Sequence record: NC_105587.1
Origin: Escherichia phage EC100
Length of the DNA: 64,000 nt
Direction: 5' to 3' (one strand)
The notes beneath the pieces are model-generated. The model made no database searches and was not told where the DNA came from. It saw nothing but the letters and a program-made list of their open reading frames with translations. This document shows positions 4,532 through 41,678 of this stretch, one piece after another. The number at the start of each line of letters is the position of its first letter. Within the stretch, counting starts at the first letter, position 1. Both the position numbers and the translations under genes were made by a program.

Positions 4532-6862
4532 TTATAACTGGCAACCACCAGAAGCACAACCCGCTGCTTCTTCACCAGCTCCTCCACCATTCGCAGTGTT
4601 AAAGTTAGCATAATACCAAGTTTTTATACCGTACTTAACAGCAGTCATGAAATCACGAACTACTACTGGGCCAGGGATGATTTCATTCTCGAATTTAGAG
4701 TAATCATAATACATCTGGAAACTTGATGACTGATTCAAGAATTTTTGGTAAACGGCGTTCCACTTGATCCACTCAGTGCGATCAATATCATAGGCCAGTT
4801 TATAGCTCATTAATGTTTCCCAATCAGTCGCACCTGGGGCAATTGCAATTACTTTATTCACTGCACTACCCTTGATAGATACAATCTTACGAGGTGGCTC
4901 AATTGAGTTGGTAACACCTAACAGAACAGAGGAACTTTCTCCCGGCATCTGAGCAGTCAGAACAGAGTTACGCATACCGTATTTCAGAATATCTGCACGG
5001 AGAGATTCCCAATCCATTTCTAGACCTACGGATACCAGCTCATCAACAGTTTTCTTATACGTGTCGATTACCAGAATTCCTTTGGATGGTTTAGTACGAT
5101 TAAACCATTCACATGCACCTTGTTCTTTAGCCAGACGTACAGAGGCTTTATGTAGGAAGTAAGACAGTTTTTCAGCCTCACGGTGAATCCAGTTACGTGC
5201 TTCAACGCCTTCATAAGCCAGACCTTCTGCTGCCATTGCACCTGCTGCGTTCATAAGGCCAATACCAACGTTACGACGTTTCTTAGCTGTATATTCCATA
5301 GTTGGGAACGGATAGTCCTGAATTTCAATAATTGTATCAACGAATTTCAGGAGGATGTAGCAAGTTTTTTCCCACTCAGCCAGAGATTCCATGCGTCCTA
5401 GTACAACACCACCTAAGTTACACAGAGATACTTCCCCAATATCCTCCGGCTTCATTTGATCAAGTTGTTCTTTTGTTTTATACAGTTCCGTGATATGATG
5501 GAGCGGGCGTGTAGGCTGAGTAATTTCAACACAAAGGTTTGTCATACGGATTGGATCAAGGAAGTTACCGTGACGATTAGATTCCCCAATGTGGTGCGCA
5601 TACATGCGTCCTGTTTCCATTCGGATACGTAGCCAGGTATCTAGGATTTCTTTTGCAGAGACTTTAGGAGCTGCTGGAACTGTTTTTCCTTCGTGGTCGA
5701 TCTTTGTAAGAGATGCCACACGTTTCTCCGCTGCCACATAGATTTCTTCAAATTTAGCCTCGTCATCACTATAAAACGCTTCATGAACTTCTGGAGCATA
5801 GAAGTATGACATTAGCGTAATATCTTCATTTTTCAGATAACGTTTTAACAAAAGATTGTTGAAACTCAGAGAATAATCCATCTTATCGATTTTATTCTCA
5901 TCTGTAGCACGTTGTTGCTTAACCTGCATCAACTGGATGATTTCAGGGTCAAAGTAAGGATAGGATACAGTAGCAGAACCACCACGAGTTTGCTGAGTAT
6001 TAGCCTTTACTGATCGGTCAATGTGTCGATAATATGGCAGTTTTCCGGAATGCGGGAATGCCCCATTTCGCACCGGATCAGCAATTGATCGGCTTTCAAG
6101 ATGATACCCGATTCCCGCTCTGGCTGCGACCATTTTAAAAACGATGTGCTCGGCTGTGTCGATTGAATCCAATGTGTCAGTGGAATCCACGAGGCAGCAA
6201 CTAGCAAATCCACGGTCACTAGAGCGCAAGCCAACCAATGGCGGCGTAGGAACGTTGATTTTGTGGAGCGACATTGCATTGTAGAGGTCGATTGCATCTA
6301 GAATTGTCCAGTTAGGTTGAGATAACATCGCCATTGCCATGCCCATATAGGCAAATTGCGGGGTTTCGTAAATTTCGCCAGTTGCGATATTACGACGGGA
6401 ATACTTATCAAAGAATTGTTTCAGTCCTCCGCTAGTGAAAAGACGGTCACGATCATGATCAATAACCTGATTCAAAGCCTCAAACTGCTCATCGGTAATC
6501 CATGCACTCATGTCTTCCCATGCACCTACACTAACCATATGATCGTGGAAAAAGCGTAGAGAAGGTGGTTCGAAGGAATCATAAAGGCGTTTACGCATCT
6601 GCGCAAGACGTAATTCCTTTGCAGGCACGTCGTATGCTGGATTATCTTTGATAAGACTTTCAGCAGCTTTAATTAACGCATCCATCAGAGTATCGGAATC
6701 TACAACCCCTTTAGGCAGAGTTTTTTGAGCAGCCATAGTAATGGCTGACCAACTTACATCAACTGTTTTGCAACCATACTCTGCCCAACCATTGAGTTTT
6801 TCAGGAGCAAAGTCTTCTACAGTACCGTCACGTTTAATTACTTTTTCAATGCGATGGCTCAT
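4532..6862 (-). CDS. nrdA: ribonucleotide reductase class Ia alpha subunit
   Basis: ATP-cone N-terminus (IEKVIKRDGTVEDF), large catalytic body, C-terminal CxxC tail; start set at ATG 6862 (AAAGGAAAA SD) rather than the ORF-track ATG 6967. Confidence 0.9.
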   Translation of the reverse strand: MSHRIEKVIKRDGTVEDFAPEKLNGWAEYGCKTVDVSWSAITMAAQKTLPKGVVDSDTLMDALIKAAESLIKDNPAYDVPAKELRLAQMRKRLYDSFEPPSLRFFHDHMVSVGAWEDMSAWITDEQFEALNQVIDHDRDRLFTSGGLKQFFDKYSRRNIATGEIYETPQFAYMGMAMAMLSQPNWTILDAIDLYNAMSLHKINVPTPPLVGLRSSDRGFASCCLVDSTDTLDSIDTAEHIVFKMVAARAGIGYHLESRSIADPVRNGAFPHSGKLPYYRHIDRSVKANTQQTRGGSATVSYPYFDPEIIQLMQVKQQRATDENKIDKMDYSLSFNNLLLKRYLKNEDITLMSYFYAPEVHEAFYSDDEAKFEEIYVAAEKRVASLTKIDHEGKTVPAAPKVSAKEILDTWLRIRMETGRMYAHHIGESNRHGNFLDPIRMTNLCVEITQPTRPLHHITELYKTKEQLDQMKPEDIGEVSLCNLGGVVLGRMESLAEWEKTCYILLKFVDTIIEIQDYPFPTMEYTAKKRRNVGIGLMNAAGAMAAEGLAYEGVEARNWIHREAEKLSYFLHKASVRLAKEQGACEWFNRTKPSKGILVIDTYKKTVDELVSVGLEMDWESLRADILKYGMRNSVLTAQMPGESSSVLLGVTNSIEPPRKIVSIKGSAVNKVIAIAPGATDWETLMSYKLAYDIDRTEWIKWNAVYQKFLNQSSSFQMYYDYSKFENEIIPGPVVVRDFMTAVKYGIKTWYYANFNTANGGGAGEEAAGCASGGCQL

Positions 6863-34691: not shown

Positions 34692-34715
34692 CCTACATAT
34701 CAAATAAATAATAAA

Positions 34716-34750
34716 CCCCAGAGGATTTTGTCCTCTGGGGTTTTCTTTTA
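34716..34750. terminator. bidirectional rho-independent terminator between convergent early and late operons
   Basis: 10-bp perfect stem CCCCAGAGGA / TCCTCTGGGG flanked by an A-run upstream and T-run downstream. Confidence 0.75.
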
Positions 34751-36478
34751 CTTAGCTTTCAATATATTTATTTCTTCTTGCAATTCTTCAACTTTATTAA
34801 TAAGCCACTTAACCGCAGCAACGGAATCAAGCAACATAACATTTTCATCGATGGCTAACGTTTTCTCTCTTCCTGGATCTCCGTATTCCCGTACATATTG
34901 GGGATCTATTTTCTGTAAATCCTGGGCTATAAAACCGCGCCTCACTTGTTCATTCTCATCATTTTTATAGATGTATGATTTATAGGGCATCTGCTTAATA
35001 TTACTTATTGCAATATTAGTATCGATGGACTGAATATTTTTCTTTAGTCTTTCATCACAAATCGGAGATTTTGAAAAAATATAATTTAACGAACCATCGT
35101 TGTACCCATATTGAATATCAAATGAATTATCAATAAATGTAAACACGGTAATACTCTTGCCATTACCTTGTTCACCATCTGGCAGTGCCCAATCCCTTAC
35201 TTGAGCAATTGCAGCTCTAGGATAACTATTGCTAGAATCAGGATAAGATATTTGTCCAAAACAAGCAAAAGATCTATAGTTTTTTAGTGAATTACCGCTA
35301 CCACCCCCAAGAATTGGAACGAAGGCACTATACGCTGTGTTATTCCACCAGTCTGGCGCGCGATAAGCGCAGTGACTATAGGAATTCCCTGTACCGACTC
35401 CGGCCGGCCTATGAGATGTTGAAAACTGACCATTACTGTCATACTTAATGCTTACAGGGATTCCTCTATCATCTGATATAGTTAAACTAACACCCCATGC
35501 ACCATTAACCACTTTACTTGATTTTAGTTCCGCTACTACATTTGCACTGGGTGATTTATACTCAGATTTAACACTACCTCCAAAAACGACAACACCTGAA
35601 TTGGGGGTTGTTTTATCCGCATTAATAACACTCCACGAGGTATTAGCAGCCACGAACCCACCAGAAGCACGGATTACCCACACACCGACAAAGTTTCGTG
35701 TAAGAATCTCATCTGTTGATGCCCCGTAAATCGGACTTGATATTGAGGCATTGAATTCGCAGGTATTATAACGCCCAGATAAAGCTGTAGACCCTGGAGC
35801 GATTCCGTCACCTCTTCCGTCAGGAAACGCATTATTGTTTGCATTAAAGCAACCACCTGTATGTCCTAATACCTGGGCATAGGTTTGAGAGGCATATGTG
35901 GTGAAAAAACCTGTAATATTAGGCGCAGCGGATTCGAACAGTTGCCCATTTGCACCACTATTCCCACCATCTCCACGGCCATAAAGAGCACGTATTGATC
36001 CCTCCTGCACCCCATTCTTATCTGGAACACGAAAGGTTGTTGTCCCATCCCCAGATGAGTATCTGCCACGCTGAAATTTATCTGCTAACCAAACTGAATC
36101 ATCTATAGCCCCAACCATTTGTGCATACGCCCAAAGTTCAGGCCAGTCAGCCCTATTAAGAAGCTGTCCATCCGAAACGACTTCGTATGGTTGAATATAC
36201 GCACGACTATCTCGGAGGTGAAAATCACCAACACCGTAGTTCATAACACCATTCATAGTGGGTCCAACTGTACCAGTGTTAATCTTATTCTCTACCCAAC
36301 GTTTAGTTGCGGCATCATAATCCCCAACAGGATCACCAGCAAGAGGGGTTGAACCAATAGGTCTTACATTTAGCCACGCTGCTGCACGGTCTGCTAAGTC
36401 ACTCAGGTTATTATTTTTATTAAGTGACTCATTTTTAAGTTTTGTAATATCCGTAGGAATTACTGTTTTAGTTACCAT
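34748..36478 (-). CDS. L-shaped tail fibre distal subunit with C-terminal intramolecular-chaperone (S74-like) domain
   Basis: 576 aa; C-terminal ...CDERLKKNIQSID...IAQDLQKIDPQYV resembles the autoproteolytic chaperone domain of tail fibres. Confidence 0.65.
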   Translation of the reverse strand: MVTKTVIPTDITKLKNESLNKNNNLSDLADRAAAWLNVRPIGSTPLAGDPVGDYDAATKRWVENKINTGTVGPTMNGVMNYGVGDFHLRDSRAYIQPYEVVSDGQLLNRADWPELWAYAQMVGAIDDSVWLADKFQRGRYSSGDGTTTFRVPDKNGVQEGSIRALYGRGDGGNSGANGQLFESAAPNITGFFTTYASQTYAQVLGHTGGCFNANNNAFPDGRGDGIAPGSTALSGRYNTCEFNASISSPIYGASTDEILTRNFVGVWVIRASGGFVAANTSWSVINADKTTPNSGVVVFGGSVKSEYKSPSANVVAELKSSKVVNGAWGVSLTISDDRGIPVSIKYDSNGQFSTSHRPAGVGTGNSYSHCAYRAPDWWNNTAYSAFVPILGGGSGNSLKNYRSFACFGQISYPDSSNSYPRAAIAQVRDWALPDGEQGNGKSITVFTFIDNSFDIQYGYNDGSLNYIFSKSPICDERLKKNIQSIDTNIAISNIKQMPYKSYIYKNDENEQVRRGFIAQDLQKIDPQYVREYGDPGREKTLAIDENVMLLDSVAAVKWLINKVEELQEEINILKAK

Positions 36479-36487
36479 TATAAAACC

Positions 36488-36766
36488 TTATGCCCATACT
36501 CTAAGAGGCTGTTCTAGCTGAACTATAAAAGGCTCGAAGTATTCGTAAGTAAAGGATTCATCAAGAATCCTTACATTAACATAGTATCCTTCATTACGGA
36601 CGTACATAGGCTCCTCATCATCTGGCGAGGAGATTTCAGTATAAGTATAGCCAATCTCGTCCAGGAGAAACATATCTCGTAACTCTTCATTTTCTTGCCA
36701 ACTTATTCCAACTAAGAAATTTTTATATTCATTCTTGTCTTTAAATTTTAGTGTTATGTCTTTCAT
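36488..36766 (-). CDS. hypothetical acidic protein between tail-fibre genes
   Basis: 92-aa ORF, 4-nt overlap with the upstream gene. Confidence 0.4.
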   Translation of the reverse strand: MKDITLKFKDKNEYKNFLVGISWQENEELRDMFLLDEIGYTYTEISSPDDEEPMYVRNEGYYVNVRILDESFTYEYFEPFIVQLEQPLRVWA

Positions 36767-39177
36767 ACAGACTCCCTCATTTGACGATCTGTTAATTCTT
36801 TATGCCAGATTCTAAAGTTTCTGACATGCCCGAAAAGATGTTTCCCACCATCTGCACTAATGCCGCCAATACGAAGATTTTTAGATAAACCAGCTTTCCA
36901 TGTTGTTTTTACAGGCGCACCGAACACAGCGTTTGTTACGCATCTTAATTCTGAGTTTTTGTTACAAACGAAACCTGTCACCATTTTCCCGCTTGTTTTT
37001 GTTGATACTGGCGTATATGACTGACTTACTCCCAACTGAGAATAAGGCAGCGGTTCTACTGTATCACTTGATGGAGCTCTGAAAGCAACTAATAACTGGT
37101 CTTCTGGTAAATTTGCTACATGTACTATCCTTGGGGCTGAGTTTGGAGGTATATCCCAGTTTCTGTTTACCTCAACAAGTAGACTTAATGGTATAGATGA
37201 TGGTTGATTGCAATCAGTTGGTATTAAAACCATGTCACTAGCGCGAGTTGCTGGCGCACCTCCTGTGATTATGAATGAAGAAGCGCACGATCCGGTCTCT
37301 ACTTGAGGTGTAGCTAAGTTAAGCGATGCACCTGTTTGTATAACACTTTCATTTTCAGGGCATACAATCTCAAAACGACAAACAGCAGATAGATCTGTAT
37401 CAAATCCGAATGTCGTTTCAAAGTACCACCAATCACCATCTTTTACCGATCTTGATGTGTATAAAGGACCAGAAGTTACCTTACCAGTATCAAGATCGAG
37501 AACTGAATCAGAATGAAAAATTGCTACACCATCAGTTACTTTTGCAAGCCTCATTCGAAGCCTAGAATTAGACCCTGCTTTAGCACGACATGACACTGTA
37601 ATATAATCACCCGTTGTTCCGCTAATAGCATTACCTATCACCATGCTCAAAATTTGATAGCCGGCAGCGTTTGGTGCTTCGTTTGTTACAGTTACACGCC
37701 CATAATTGAATCTACCATCGTTTGACTCCTCGATACCTATCGATGCTGTTTTATTCCATAATGCCGGTGAGTTGGAATTTAAGAAATAATTAGTTCTTTG
37801 CCCTTCAATAAGCAAACCATCTCGTTCAAATCGCGGTTCGTCAACTTCAGCAATGGTCAATATACCGGACTTATTAATATATGTCGCAGTTGATGCACGG
37901 GTAAAGCTAACAATCTTGTCGCTAGGCAGTGTTATTTCCTCATCACCGACTGTTATTTTTTTATAGCCTGGTGCAAAGCCGGTGATCATATCTAGAGAAT
38001 CGTTAAACGGTATCCATACATCTGGAAGAGGTTGAATGTCGGGGGTAGAATTAGCAGCAGCTTCTGATCTATCAGCCTCAGTTTTTGAACGGTCGGCTTC
38101 AGTTTTAGCAGTATTAGCACTATTGGCAGCATTAGTAGCTTGTTTTCCAGCTTCAGTAGCAGAATTTGCAGCATTAGTTGCAGAAGCAGCAGCTTGGTTT
38201 TTTAAAGTTGTTGTCTCAGATACCGCGCTATCCTTAATACCTTGTGTATCTATTTTTAATTGCTCAACATCTGCTTTTAAAGCTGTTGTCTCTGTTACAG
38301 CACTATTTTTAATGGCTTGGGTATCTGTTTTTAATTGCTCAACATCTGCTTTTAAAGCTGTTGTCTCTGTTACAGCACTATTTTTAATGGCTTGGGTATC
38401 AGATTTTAACTGTTCAACATCTGATTTAAGTCCTTGAATAGTAGTTACAGATTGACTGGCGGAAGTTGCAGATCCTGCAGCATTAGTTTCACTAGCCTTA
38501 GCTTTTGTTTCCGAGGTTTTTGCATTGGTTTCAGAGATTTTTGCCGCAGATGCCGATGCAGCAGCTTGCTCAGAGAATATTTCCGCCTCATTCCTAAAAC
38601 CGTTAGAAGCAGCAGCTGATTGAGCTGCATTAGTCTCACTGATTTTTGCTTTATCTTCACTAATTTTTGCAGCTGCAGTCGAAGCAGCAGCATTAGTTTC
38701 ACTAGCCTTAGCATTAGTCTCGGAGGCCTTAGCTTTGGTTTCACTAGACTTTGCATTAGTTTCTGATGTTTTTGCATTAGTCTCGGAGGTTTTAGCCTTA
38801 GTTTCACTAGCTTTCGCATTAGTCTCGGATACTTTAGCTGCTGCAGCTGATTCTGCAGATTTAGTAGCAGAAGTGGCAGACTGAGTAGCAGAAGTAGCTG
38901 ATTGGGTAGCCGATGCTTCAGAAGCTCCAGCGGAAATAGCAGCTTCCTGCTCCGAATTCTTAGCATTAAGTTCTGAGGTTTTAGCTGCTATTTCAGAATC
39001 TTTTGCAGCCGCAGCAGATTTAGCAGCGGCCTCTATAGAGGATACTAACTCATTAGCAGTAATAGAGCTAATAGAATTTCCAAGAGTTACTGTGTATCTA
39101 GGAAATTTACTAGCAGTAGCTTTAGTATCATCAATATTTAATATTTGTTGTACAATAATCTTAGTAGTTATTGCCAT
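36763..39177 (-). CDS. L-shaped tail fibre proximal subunit (pb1-like N-terminal part)
   Basis: 804 aa; long Ala/Ser/Thr-rich low-complexity region with SETNAK heptad repeats and three 25-aa tandem repeats. Confidence 0.65.
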   Translation of the reverse strand: MAITTKIIVQQILNIDDTKATASKFPRYTVTLGNSISSITANELVSSIEAAAKSAAAAKDSEIAAKTSELNAKNSEQEAAISAGASEASATQSATSATQSATSATKSAESAAAAKVSETNAKASETKAKTSETNAKTSETNAKSSETKAKASETNAKASETNAAASTAAAKISEDKAKISETNAAQSAAASNGFRNEAEIFSEQAAASASAAKISETNAKTSETKAKASETNAAGSATSASQSVTTIQGLKSDVEQLKSDTQAIKNSAVTETTALKADVEQLKTDTQAIKNSAVTETTALKADVEQLKIDTQGIKDSAVSETTTLKNQAAASATNAANSATEAGKQATNAANSANTAKTEADRSKTEADRSEAAANSTPDIQPLPDVWIPFNDSLDMITGFAPGYKKITVGDEEITLPSDKIVSFTRASTATYINKSGILTIAEVDEPRFERDGLLIEGQRTNYFLNSNSPALWNKTASIGIEESNDGRFNYGRVTVTNEAPNAAGYQILSMVIGNAISGTTGDYITVSCRAKAGSNSRLRMRLAKVTDGVAIFHSDSVLDLDTGKVTSGPLYTSRSVKDGDWWYFETTFGFDTDLSAVCRFEIVCPENESVIQTGASLNLATPQVETGSCASSFIITGGAPATRASDMVLIPTDCNQPSSIPLSLLVEVNRNWDIPPNSAPRIVHVANLPEDQLLVAFRAPSSDTVEPLPYSQLGVSQSYTPVSTKTSGKMVTGFVCNKNSELRCVTNAVFGAPVKTTWKAGLSKNLRIGGISADGGKHLFGHVRNFRIWHKELTDRQMRESV
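38206..38430 (-). repeat. three 75-bp in-frame tandem repeats inside the tail-fibre gene
   Basis: Near-identical 75-nt units encoding ALKADVEQLK(T/S/I)DTQAIKNSAVTETT. Confidence 0.8.
38680..38870 (-). repeat. 21-bp in-frame repeat array (SETNAK units) inside the tail-fibre gene
   Basis: Reiterated GCATTAGTCTCGGAGG / TTTGCATTAGTTTC units on the plus strand. Confidence 0.7.
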
Positions 39178-39599
39178 TATCTAGTTACCCCATCACTGAT
39201 AAATACTTTACCCTCCATTATACGAAAAGAGCTAATAGCTGATCCTATGACATCTCGTGTCATAATTATATCATAGTATCCTGCAAAACGTTGGCGAGGG
39301 TTATACTTATCTCTCTCTTTGGTAGCTTTTTCACCAATATTATCTACCGCCTCTACAGGTAAACTTATAGCTATGGCACCTTGAGCAGCATCAATAATTT
39401 TAGTAGTAAAAGATGCCAAAGTTTCCGCATTCTCATCAAGCCCGGCCTTTATAGTACCCCTTAGAGAATACCCCGTTAAGTTAACAGGGGTATTTGTAGG
39501 TGGATAAGTACTATCATCAACATCTAAGAATTGCATCATTAGACCATAAGGTACTTTCTCATCTATCACTAAGTCTATAACTCTATTTTCAGTACTCAT
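39177..39599 (-). CDS. tail collar protein (T5 p132-like)
   Basis: 140 aa, between pb4-like and tail-fibre genes; assignment by size and position. Confidence 0.45.
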
Positions 39600-39605
39600 T
39601 ATTTA

Positions 39606-41678
39606 TTACCTTATATGGATATACCCACTATTTAGGTCTATCTTCATCTTGTAGTATGCCTCAGGATTCCCGGATAACGCAGCATTTCTATCATAAATGA
39701 TGTTAACACCGATCTGAGATAAGAAAGCATTTCCTGCTACAATTTTATCTGCCGTCACCGTCCCATTAACAATCATGTTTCCGTGGAGAACCATTGCAGG
39801 GCTAACCCAACCAGACCCATTCCATTGCCTTGTAAATGCTGATTGTGGAGCATTACTATTAAATTCGGTTAATACATCATATCTAACAGGAGGACTACCA
39901 AAGTTATTCTGGAAGAAGGCATTAGCCTGCCCATCATCCCAGCCCCCAAGACCAGGAATACCTAAGGAGTACATTCCAGGACCACGTTGTCCATCATGTC
40001 CTATAGTACCCTCAGTACCACTCCACTGAACTACATCAGACCAGCTAGTACCTTCAAGAAGTTTGTTAGTAACGGGATCAAGCGTACCTGTAGTGGCATA
40101 GATATTCTGTGTCATATCTGTACGGTTAGGTGGAGTTTTTGACCAACCAGGAGGCGGATAATCTTGTTCTAGTGGTTTAGCAGGTAGAGATGTTGCTAAC
40201 TTATAAACAAATACTGTTTGCTTACCTTGCATACCAGTACCCAGATCTACATCACCATTAGGAGTTCCAATAACTACTCCACTAGAAATACGTAGCACAT
40301 CACCATCATAACGAATCCACTGTGTGGCATTACCAATGTCTAATTTAGCTTTGGCAGAGGTATTATCCATACCCATCCAAATACCAGAGTTATTATCCCC
40401 CCAAGATTTACCTTGAGTGTAAATTGCTGGATTATCCTTACCAGATAAGTTAGTCATGATAAAGTTCGCAGCATTAATATCTCTAGTAATTACTTTACCA
40501 TCAACGTTAACAACACGGTTTATAGGGTCAAAAGAAATAGGTGCTTTTCCTTCTTCATCTAGCAGACCAATGTTAATAGCACCAGTAGCTGCGTCGATTA
40601 AGAATGTCTGTCTCCAGATTTCTCCATCTTTCATGCTGCCCTTAATAAAGGCATAATTAACATCAATACCCGTCTCATTGACAAAGCTGTTGTCTAGAGG
40701 AGTATCTTCATTAAGTATAAACGTTACAGGAGCTGATTCTGTTATATCTTGCTTATTTGGTCCCCAGGCAATTGATGATACCTTAAAAGTATGCTCAACT
40801 TTCCATGGGAATGATATAATCGTTGCAGCTCTAGCAGCCCCAACGTTTATCTTTTGAGCTTTAGCCCAGCCAGTCTTAGCGTATTCTTCAGAGTTTATAT
40901 AAGTAACCAGAAATTCACGGACATTAGCACCCGCACCACGTTCCCAGTCCCACTCTATTCTGACATCATATCGTTCCTTACCATCTGCAATTCGTGCAGC
41001 TTTAAAGGCAATGTTAGTAGGTGCAGTAGGTGGTACAAAATTATAAGCTACAGTGAAAACGCTAGGATATTCATAATAACCAGATGAGTCAACTGTAACA
41101 CCATCTGGCATCGTAACTTGACCAGATATTCTGATCTTATAGTCGCCAACAGGAACACCACCAAATTTGATAGTAGGTCCCAGCGCACCTATATAATACT
41201 TAACCCATTCACTATCTTCTGATGCAGTACTTTTTAATTCAATAGTGCAGTAACTAGCTTCACCAGTAGTATCTACAACAACTATTGGAGCACCAACACC
41301 TACGTCGACGGGTTCTGATTCAGATCTTGCTGCAACAATTATTGGCTTTTCCTTTGTTCTAAAGTTAGTTTCATTAGAGAGGTTGATACCAATTTTTGCA
41401 TTTAAAAGCTCTGAGTCAATAATTGAGTCATAGAAAGCCCCCTGAATCTCATAGGAGGTAGAGGGGGTTAGATTATTAATCATTACGAAGAAAGTATCTA
41501 TACCGGTGTAATCACGTCTATCTATACTTTCTCCTATTTTTAACCAAAAAGATCTACCAATAACATCATAATCAGTATAAATGGAGTGCTGGACATAAGC
41601 CAAAGTATATCCAGTCATTATACTATTTAAGACCATTTTGGCTGGTGCATTATTTGAAATCATTAAATGGATGCCCAC
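39606..41678 (-). CDS. baseplate / tail tip protein (T5 pb4-like)
   Basis: 690 aa, downstream of the hub gene; assignment by size and position. Confidence 0.5.
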   Translation of the reverse strand: MGIHLMISNNAPAKMVLNSIMTGYTLAYVQHSIYTDYDVIGRSFWLKIGESIDRRDYTGIDTFFVMINNLTPSTSYEIQGAFYDSIIDSELLNAKIGINLSNETNFRTKEKPIIVAARSESEPVDVGVGAPIVVVDTTGEASYCTIELKSTASEDSEWVKYYIGALGPTIKFGGVPVGDYKIRISGQVTMPDGVTVDSSGYYEYPSVFTVAYNFVPPTAPTNIAFKAARIADGKERYDVRIEWDWERGAGANVREFLVTYINSEEYAKTGWAKAQKINVGAARAATIISFPWKVEHTFKVSSIAWGPNKQDITESAPVTFILNEDTPLDNSFVNETGIDVNYAFIKGSMKDGEIWRQTFLIDAATGAINIGLLDEEGKAPISFDPINRVVNVDGKVITRDINAANFIMTNLSGKDNPAIYTQGKSWGDNNSGIWMGMDNTSAKAKLDIGNATQWIRYDGDVLRISSGVVIGTPNGDVDLGTGMQGKQTVFVYKLATSLPAKPLEQDYPPPGWSKTPPNRTDMTQNIYATTGTLDPVTNKLLEGTSWSDVVQWSGTEGTIGHDGQRGPGMYSLGIPGLGGWDDGQANAFFQNNFGSPPVRYDVLTEFNSNAPQSAFTRQWNGSGWVSPAMVLHGNMIVNGTVTADKIVAGNAFLSQIGVNIIYDRNAALSGNPEAYYKMKIDLNSGYIHIR

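Follow-up and report, generated by a model that had tools for sequence, protein, structure and literature searches.

Escherichia phage EC100 (NC_105587.1) raises the question of how a lateral tail fibre encoded in pieces is put together. In the 64,000-nucleotide stretch of this genome that we analysed (the window, numbered from its first letter), the genes pb3, pb4 and that of the LtfC collar are followed by three close-packed fibre-locus open reading frames (ORFs), all on the minus strand. A first-pass annotation, made from the sequence alone, had described them as a fibre split into an 804-amino-acid proximal and a 576-amino-acid distal protein with an acidic 92-amino-acid ORF in between. 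That description is borne out by the ORFs themselves, by the homology of the proximal protein to LtfA and pb1 and of the distal protein to Gp24, and by an N-terminal tag shared among distal fibre proteins. We consider it reasonably probable that the locus encodes the two-segment lateral tail fibre of a Tequintavirus, with a joint made of a LamG-like domain and the 92-amino-acid protein, and with a chaperone domain that cleaves itself at Cys474. The genes concerned are:

36763-39177, minus strand: proximal fibre protein, 804 amino acids (phrog_1419, E 5e-205; N-terminus homologous to LtfA and pb1)
36488-36766, minus strand: acidic protein, 92 amino acids (phrog_1361, function unknown)
34748-36478, minus strand: distal fibre protein, 576 amino acids (phrog_6921 'tail fiber protein', E 1e-208; homologue of IrisVonRoten Gp24)
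39177-39599, minus strand: LtfC/p132 collar protein, 140 amino acids (Pfam PF23926 LtfC, E 8.4e-15; position matching ltfC of DT57C)

What might hold the two segments together? The proposed joint would bring one end of each fibre protein into contact:

36766-38040, minus strand: LamG/ConA-like double jelly-roll C-domain of the proximal protein, residues 380-804 (425 amino acids), recognised by NCBIfam and by its AlphaFold2 (AF2) fold; proposed socket for the distal fibre
36434-36478, minus strand: N-terminal tag of the distal protein, residues 1-15 (MVTKTVIPTDITKLK), common to otherwise unrelated distal proteins; putative docking element

A relative of the 92-amino-acid protein adjoins the C-domain ORF on its downstream side in 78 of the 80 viral-contig loci that were retrieved with the 92-amino-acid family alignment, and lies directly downstream of it in every context inspected by hand; a tagged distal protein is present in 33 of the 80. 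Carriers of the C-domain include T1-like lateral fibres, lambdoid side fibres with an Stf N-domain, fibres of siphophages of ~60 kilobases (kb) and P1-like S proteins. The C-domain is 43-56% identical in these T1-like, lambdoid, ~60-kb siphophage and P1-like proximal proteins, and the N-termini of its carriers are specific to the phage type and mutually unrelated. The distal proteins of T5-like, ~60-kb siphophage, T1-like, lambdoid and P1-like elements are likewise mutually unrelated except for their first ~15 residues, which follow the consensus M-[VAT]-T-x-T-x-I-P-x-D-I-[TK]-x-L-K. This tag reads MVTKTVIPTDITKLK in T5-like and ~60-kb siphophages, MATVTVIPSDITKLK in T1-like phages, MANLTVIPDDIKTLK and MATSTVIPDDIKTLK in lambdoid prophages, and MATVTTIPTDITNLK in P1-like elements.

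The order of LamG-like C-domain, 92-amino-acid protein and tagged distal protein is kept in all five settings. Since the tag does not vary with the type of phage tail, its partner should lie inside the module and not on the tail, which is the main argument that the 576-amino-acid protein docks on the 804-amino-acid protein. The pattern points to a plug-and-socket joint shared by T5-like, T1-like, lambdoid, ~60-kb siphophage and P1-like genomes. We found neither the LamG-like/92-amino-acid/tagged-distal module as a named family nor a description of the wide reach of the 92-amino-acid module; the cross-family module is a useful generalisation and a candidate interaction that still needs structural proof.

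The C-domain search returned 2609 homologues, several of which, among the matches listed, carry Pfam Laminin_G_3 or are named LamG by their source. NCBIfam places a 'phage head spike fiber domain' within the C-domain at residues 456-646 (E 8.5e-19). We examined AF2 models of the C-domain protein and of the 92-amino-acid protein, both as monomers. The C-domain model is all-beta, with a predicted local distance difference test (pLDDT) score of 83 and a predicted template modelling (pTM) score of 0.81. Its best structural match, at 18% sequence identity, is gp46 of Pseudomonas phage Pa193, a baseplate wedge subunit with a loop that grips the N-terminal loops of gp47, the trimeric tail fibre (PMC11456595). 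Gene linkage and fold at the joint are observed, and from them we infer a physical complex.

We also observed that residues 380-424 of the proximal protein (37906-38040, beginning PDIQPLPDVWIPFNDSLDMITGF) are nearly invariant across phage families and form the only stretch of the C-domain monomer model with pLDDT below 50. Because this segment is near-invariant yet poorly modelled, it would fit a candidate interface that folds only in an oligomer or complex.

The 92-amino-acid protein is acidic (isoelectric point 4.24; 20 Asp and Glu against 9 Lys and Arg), and its AF2 model has a small alpha/beta fold (pLDDT 83). Its family, present in 167 phage records, is strongly conserved, including an invariant C-terminal QPLR-x-WA tail. 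Nearly all members read QPLREWA, with Glu90 in at least 90% of them; the protein described here has Val at this position and reads QPLRVWA (36494-36496, residue 90). Pfam gave no match at E <= 0.01 for the 92- and 804-amino-acid proteins, and NCBIfam gave none for the 92- and 576-amino-acid proteins. At P1-like loci a dedicated Caudo_TAP chaperone comes after the distal protein, and in the other contexts an S74 chaperone domain is part of the distal protein; the role of the 92-amino-acid protein is therefore not, or not simply, that of a distal-protein chaperone. It is a candidate structural component of the joint or a candidate assembly factor.

Several features of individual records that carry the module deserve mention. 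In P1-like plasmid prophages (L011-L013) the LamG-like domain and the 92-amino-acid gene are followed by a short tagged distal protein with a Caudo_TAP chaperone. In one of them (L012, 4736-7577 and 7606-10678) the module adjoins a resolvase/invertase and is opposed by a second fibre cassette on the other strand, so that the P1-like module may belong to an invertible host-range switch; in another (L011) the gene call for the distal protein overlooks the in-frame MATVTTIPTDITNLK start. Records named 'Campylobacter phage A1xx' (MG0656xx) and 'Listeria phage LM ...' (OR847733/OR848352) contain coliphage-type fibre chaperone domains (59% identity) or 92-amino-acid genes (51-74% identity). Probably these records name the wrong host, or else they are contaminant fragments.

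The second part of the question concerns the far end of the distal protein, where two features matter:

34751-35059, minus strand: intramolecular chaperone domain (Peptidase_S74, Pfam PF13884), residues 474-576
35057-35059, minus strand: TGT codon of Cys474, in the column of the Ser nucleophile of S74 domains

The first-pass annotation had placed an intramolecular-chaperone-like domain here and had pointed to a Cys (SPIC-DERLKKNI) where the Ser of the cleavage site is expected. Pfam PF13884 matches residues 474-529 at the C-terminus with 55.2 bits against a cut-off of 22 (E 8.9e-15), and its first profile position falls on Cys474. Two further, independent alignments agree on this column. MAFFT places C-D-E-R-L-K, free of gaps, under S1264-D-A-R-L-K1269 of pb1 and S-G-x-x-x-K of LtfA and LtfB. 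HMMER places Cys474 on Ser587 of MyRF (Ala in chain 7dc3), Lys479 on K592, and Tyr502 and Tyr504 on Y615 and Y617. The catalytic centres are defined by experiment: in T5 pb1 the Thr1263-Ser1264 bond is the target of Ser1264 and Lys1269 (PMC4690869); in MyRF, which is cut at P586-S587, S587 and K592 are essential and Y615 and Y617 contribute (PMC8326128). The EC100 domain thus has the Pfam match, the Lys at +5 and the Tyr pair of S74 domains, and begins with Cys474 and not with Ser.

The Cys is there, as claimed, but it is not unique to this locus. An exhaustive search with residues 462-576 against 1.84 billion cluster representatives found 965 relatives. Among the 143 alignable sequences of the best 150 of these, the nucleophile column holds Ser in 133, Cys in 10 (7%) and any other residue in none. 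(Queries with the chaperone domain gave 2 matches in a word-indexed protein search and 3 loci in a viral-contig scan.) Cys-bearing domains do not form one clade, and the nearest neighbours of most of them carry Ser, which indicates that the Ser/Cys switch happened several times. The same allele (at least 97% identity) is present in ten sequenced phages, and the Cys was read directly in five further isolates: L6jm, VSe12, NG_A1 (Japan), I14 (Philippines) and EC122 (Denmark). The homologue in IrisVonRoten (Bas32) has Ser in the cleavage column (AVSDSRLK). Ser469 and Ser471 in FSKSPIC were considered as the real nucleophile and excluded, as Ser-type relatives keep K-S-P-x and have an additional Ser right before the Asp.

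Because the column is restricted to Ser and Cys and the base and aromatic pair are intact, Cys474 is most likely a working nucleophile. We read it as a functionally equivalent, recurrently evolved nucleophile swap, a natural variant and not a defect. Self-cleavage between Ile473 and Cys474, the most likely outcome as judged from the alignments, would convert the 62.6-kDa protein into a 50.6-kDa mature form and a 12.0-kDa fragment. The Cys form is real, recurrent and minor, and apparently undescribed: our search of a limited literature collection met no account of a Cys-type chaperone domain, and the text on a deep mutational scan of the K1F tailspike (PMC12632334) makes no mention of the S911 site. 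The S74 family definition should probably read Ser or Cys.

Between tag and chaperone domain, the distal protein contains two regions:

35552-36439, minus strand: shaft and collar/gp12-like receptor-binding region, residues 14-309, shared with LtfA and LtfB of DT57C and named 'Gp12-like RBD1' for the Bas32 homologue
35060-35551, minus strand: variable distal domain, residues 310-473 (receptor-binding domain 2, RBD2, in Bas32 nomenclature), with a putative function taken from the Bas32 homologue

Residues 14-309 match residues 526-823 of LtfA (8hqz_d) with a domain E-value of 1.9e-118, and this distal block is 64% identical to LtfA 511-821 and 63.5% identical to LtfB 206-487. Gp24 of IrisVonRoten is 51% identical over residues 1-576 and ~100% identical over residues 1-120. 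Published work presents it as a 'T-shaped' fibre made up of a Gp12-like RBD1, a T5-like RBD2 and an intramolecular chaperone, and joined to a long proximal fibre (PMC11990801). By full-length homology to Gp24, the 576-amino-acid protein would belong to this T-shaped, dual-RBD type, the shape itself being that reported in PMC11990801. Identity to Gp24 falls to 20-45% in the specificity stretch at residues 161-240 and to 22-28% at residues 321-480; receptor specificity is therefore expected to differ from that of Bas32. Residues 310-473, which would be the mature C-terminus if cleavage occurs, are 82-96% identical in L6jm, I14, VSe12 and NG_A1. Two of these records have broken distal genes: a frameshift lies just upstream of the chaperone domain in VSe12 (about 6001-6004 of locus L005) and at residue 191 in NG_A1 (about 4685-4688 of locus L014). 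The broken genes are annotated as two coding sequences or as partly hypothetical, and the frameshifts are either sequencing errors or real pseudogenisation.

Upstream of its C-domain, the proximal protein consists of three further regions:

39043-39177, minus strand: pb1/LtfA-type N-terminus, residues 1-45, from the LtfA and pb1 alignments; its putative role at the collar is taken from DT57C cryo-electron microscopy (PMC10713586)
38431-39042, minus strand: Ala/Ser/Thr-rich heptad region, residues 46-249, with arrays of 21-base-pair (bp) SETNAK repeats (Tandem Repeats Finder, heptad register)
38203-38427, minus strand: three tandem repeats of 25 amino acids (75 bp), residues 251-325 (Tandem Repeats Finder score 344)

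Residues 1-209 match DT57C LtfA 1-223 (E 1.3e-33), and the N-terminus is 53% identical to T5 pb1 over the first ~205-227 residues. In the DT57C structure the N-terminal part of LtfA enters the LtfC ring (PMC10713586); by analogy, LtfC/p132 would anchor the proximal fibre to the tail here. The repeat arrays that the first-pass annotation had noted in the proximal gene were recovered by Tandem Repeats Finder: a 75-bp unit in 3.0 copies at 38200-38427 (89% matches, score 344), and 21-bp arrays at 38689-38835, 38855-38910 and 38127-38185, which in the protein form a long in-register run of xSETNAK-type heptads. These repeats are far beyond chance. Consistent with the suggestion that they serve as substrates for length variation, an alignment with four relatives shows three copies of the 25-amino-acid unit here, two in IrisVonRoten, L6jm and VSe12, and one in HMD-P4. 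Indels among the four relatives fall exactly at the boundaries of repeat units, single heptads are gained or lost, and the heptad region of VSe12 is ~101 residues shorter. From the heptad register alone, residues 46-249 of the shaft are presumably a trimeric alpha-helical coiled coil. The LtfA match and a weak match of residues 269-377 to the N-terminal region of T7 gp17 (E 0.0025) show relatedness, and neither establishes coiled-coil structure.

We propose the following arrangement. Trimers of the 804-amino-acid protein would plug their pb1/LtfA-type N-termini into the LtfC collar, and the shaft of heptad and 25-amino-acid repeats would project outward, its length drifting by unit-wise insertion and deletion. 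At its far end, the LamG-like double jelly-roll and the co-translated acidic 92-amino-acid protein would form the joint, or socket, into which the 576-amino-acid protein would dock by its conserved 15-residue N-terminal tag. The distal segment would carry the receptor-binding domains of the T-shaped fibre type. Its S74 chaperone would drive trimer folding and then cut itself off between Ile473 and Cys474, with the Cys474 thiol, activated by Lys479, replacing the Ser hydroxyl as nucleophile. This would release the 12-kDa fragment and leave a mature distal protein of 50.6 kDa.

Several points weigh against this arrangement, beginning with the fact that the cleavage, the joint complex and the presence of the 92-amino-acid protein in virions are steps that we infer. 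Fold comparison of the 92-amino-acid model gave no informative match. At 45 of the 80 loci, a large Escherichia coli prophage lineage, the LamG-like and 92-amino-acid proteins occur without a tagged distal protein, and a second lineage, more divergent, has a LamG-type protein, then an 88-amino-acid ORF and no tagged protein. The LamG-like/92-amino-acid pair can therefore exist without a distal fibre, and retention of the 92-amino-acid gene in the first of these lineages ties its product to the LamG-like domain. The 92-amino-acid protein may thus be only an assembly chaperone of that domain, and the LamG-type C-domain could itself bind glycans. Concerning cleavage, uncleaved Ser-to-Ala mutants of T5 pb1 still fold (PMC4690869), so conservation of the fold alone is no proof of cleavage; and counterparts of the Arg/Asp 'sensor' residues of pb1 are not obvious from the sequence upstream of Cys474.

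The neighbourhoods of the distal-less loci have features of their own. At the E. coli prophage loci (L030 and 44 similar; L029-L077) the 92-amino-acid gene is followed directly by a hydrophobic ORF of 97 amino acids (beginning MDISPLLHALCAVAAQ), and in the lambdoid locus L017 an ORF of 97 amino acids stands behind the distal fibre gene. The layout of the prophage loci could be explained by loss of the distal gene. At L019 and L020 the LamG-type protein and the 88-amino-acid ORF are followed by bacterial-type genes (corA).

The alternative that survives best, and that we take seriously while leaning against it, is that the 92-amino-acid protein is a transient assembly chaperone of the LamG-like C-domain, absent from virions, and that the distal tag binds the LamG-like domain directly. 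A position just downstream of a fibre gene is usual for fibre assembly factors, and the proximal protein itself lacks a chaperone domain (a Pfam search found no S74 domain in it). Linkage of the 92-amino-acid gene is tighter to the LamG-like domain than to the distal protein (78 against 33 of 80), the gene is kept in the prophages without a distal fibre, and its phiR2-01 counterpart is annotated as a predicted tail assembly chaperone (PMC8624392). However, no known chaperone family was matched in Pfam, in NCBIfam or by fold, and the high conservation and 4-nucleotide translational coupling would suit a stoichiometric structural partner just as well.

LamG folds are typical lectins, and a more doubtful alternative makes the C-domain a glycan-binding receptor domain, the 804-amino-acid protein a complete fibre and the 576-amino-acid protein a side branch as in DT57C. 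The head-spike signature in the C-domain, its conserved ends and variable middle, and the LamG-type proteins that stand without a distal protein in some prophages would all suit such a role. Yet the C-domain remains 43-74% identical over phages of differing hosts and O-antigen specificities while their distal proteins diverge completely, and its best structural match is a subunit that holds a fibre in the baseplate. Glycan binding and docking by the C-domain are compatible, and the roles are not exclusive.

We consider it improbable that Cys474 marks lost or attenuated cleavage, whereby the chaperone would be retained, or released slowly or under redox control, capping the distal RBD and timing its competence to bind. 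Uncleaved pb1 S1264A folds yet stops competing for infection, which shows that a chaperone left in place can mask binding (PMC4690869), and tail fibres with transient chaperone 'caps' have been reported (PMC10579305). Also on this side, the literature collection that we searched gave no experiment on a Cys form. Set against these points, the restriction of the column to Ser and Cys in the 143 representatives, never Ala, Gly, Thr or Asn, fits a kept nucleophile and not a relaxed site; none of Lys+5, Asp+1 and the Tyr-x-Tyr pair has been lost; and Cys arose repeatedly inside Ser lineages. Cys is, moreover, a standard nucleophile in cis-autoproteolysis and isosteric with Ser. That errors of sequencing or assembly produced the two-ORF split or the Cys codon, an idea to which the frameshifted fibre genes of the relatives VSe12, NG_A1 and I14 might lend colour, is already refuted by comparative data, namely the identical layout with a conserved 92-amino-acid gene in many independent genomes and phage families and the Cys codon in at least five further isolates.

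The preferred reading, of a two-segment fibre with a LamG-like/92-amino-acid joint and a Cys-type chaperone, can be extended, tentatively and with more risk of error, to a broader proposal. The LamG-like C-domain, the 92-amino-acid protein as a structural part and the 15-residue tag might be a portable plug-and-socket for exchange of distal receptor-binding proteins among siphoviruses (T5-like, T1-like, lambdoid, Seuratvirus/Nonagvirus-like) and P1-like myoviruses, and Cys-type S74 domains might be a distinct, recurrently evolved subclass with a thiol nucleophile, within a family catalogued as serine peptidases, and possibly with other kinetics of cleavage or another sensitivity to redox state. 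In T5-like phages, which find use in biocontrol and therapy, the O-antigen host range is determined by the lateral fibres, and a short conserved tag and a conserved socket would, if true, provide a simple rule for host-range swapping across several phage families. Rules for annotation or engineering that look for a 'Ser' cleavage site would give the wrong call for ~7% of related chaperone domains, and the Cys variant is a natural experiment on whether a thiol can serve in the Ser-Lys dyad of S74 equally well. These findings refine, and do not overturn, current understanding.

The locus itself is closely packed and shared with other isolates. Positions 34700-39650 are 100% identical to the Escherichia phages EC104, EC105, EC122 and EC142 (Tequintavirus), which originate from bird faeces in Denmark. 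The 804- and 92-amino-acid genes overlap by 4 nucleotides, and a gap of 9 nucleotides separates the 92- and 576-amino-acid genes. The fibre operon ends at a hairpin that lies between dut, on the plus strand, and the distal fibre gene, on the minus strand:

34713-34743, both strands: bidirectional intrinsic-terminator hairpin with a perfect stem of 13-14 bp, 7 G-C pairs and T-rich tails on both strands

At the equivalent position the T5 record has an annotated 'efficient bidirectional rho-independent terminator'. A matching three-gene layout is annotated in other Tequintaviruses (EC122, IrisVonRoten and HMD-P4). An equivalent layout is found in Yersinia phage phiR2-01 (g123-g125), where both fibre proteins were seen by proteomics (PMC8624392), and Golomidova et al. 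remarked on the two-fibre-gene layout in SPC35 and AKFV33 (PMC4728585). The two-gene architecture and the repeats are thus ordinary and already in the literature. Among the related records, PP892525.1 (vB_EcoS_I14) is labelled Ounavirinae/Felixounavirus yet has T5-like synteny (pb4, LtfC, fibre genes, dut, D15, D14, D13, D12), and its proximal fibre gene is fragmented into several coding sequences.

How does this fibre compare with known systems? The S74 domains of the endosialidase endoNF and of MyRF share with it the Pfam match, the Lys at +5 and the two Tyr, and differ in that the Ser of their Ser-Lys dyad (S911 in endoNF, S587 in MyRF) is Cys here. Pa193 gp46 is a myovirus baseplate protein and not the end of a fibre, and its likeness to the C-domain is a fold match at 18% identity. 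T5 pb1 has in common with this fibre the N-terminal homology and a C-terminal S74 domain with the motif X-D-x-x-x-K. Whereas pb1 is a single polypeptide of 1396 amino acids with Ser1264, two polypeptides and a small protein are found here, with Cys474, and no similarity to pb1 was detectable beyond the N-terminus and the chaperone domain. The fibre is not pb1 simply cut in two, a possibility excluded by the lack of pb1 similarity past about residue 230. The features of a T5-type fibre that this locus has are the N-terminal homology and the LtfC neighbour; a single polypeptide with shaft, tip and chaperone is absent.

DT57C is more similar, with a homologous N-terminus and LtfC anchoring, the ~300-residue distal block (64%) in LtfA and LtfB, and an S74 domain. 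Both DT57C fibre proteins carry a chaperone domain, however, whereas the proximal protein here has none and ends in the LamG-like domain, for whose residues 380-804 BLAST found no similarity to LtfA. LtfB is thought to dock by a gp15-like N-terminus on a segment of LtfA resembling phiEco32 gp14 (PMC4728585). The N-terminus of the distal protein here (MVTKTVIPTDITKLK) differs from that of LtfB, and the 92-amino-acid protein intervenes; the docking features of DT57C are absent, and by sequence the docking system would differ from that of LtfA and LtfB. Closest of all is IrisVonRoten (Bas32), which has the same three-gene order beside ltfC, with identities of 64% for the proximal, 76% for the 92-amino-acid and 51% for the distal protein. 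It differs in having Ser in the cleavage column and two 25-amino-acid repeats, where Cys and three repeats are found here. The locus works like a Bas32-type two-part fibre and is, in concept, like the branched fibre of DT57C.

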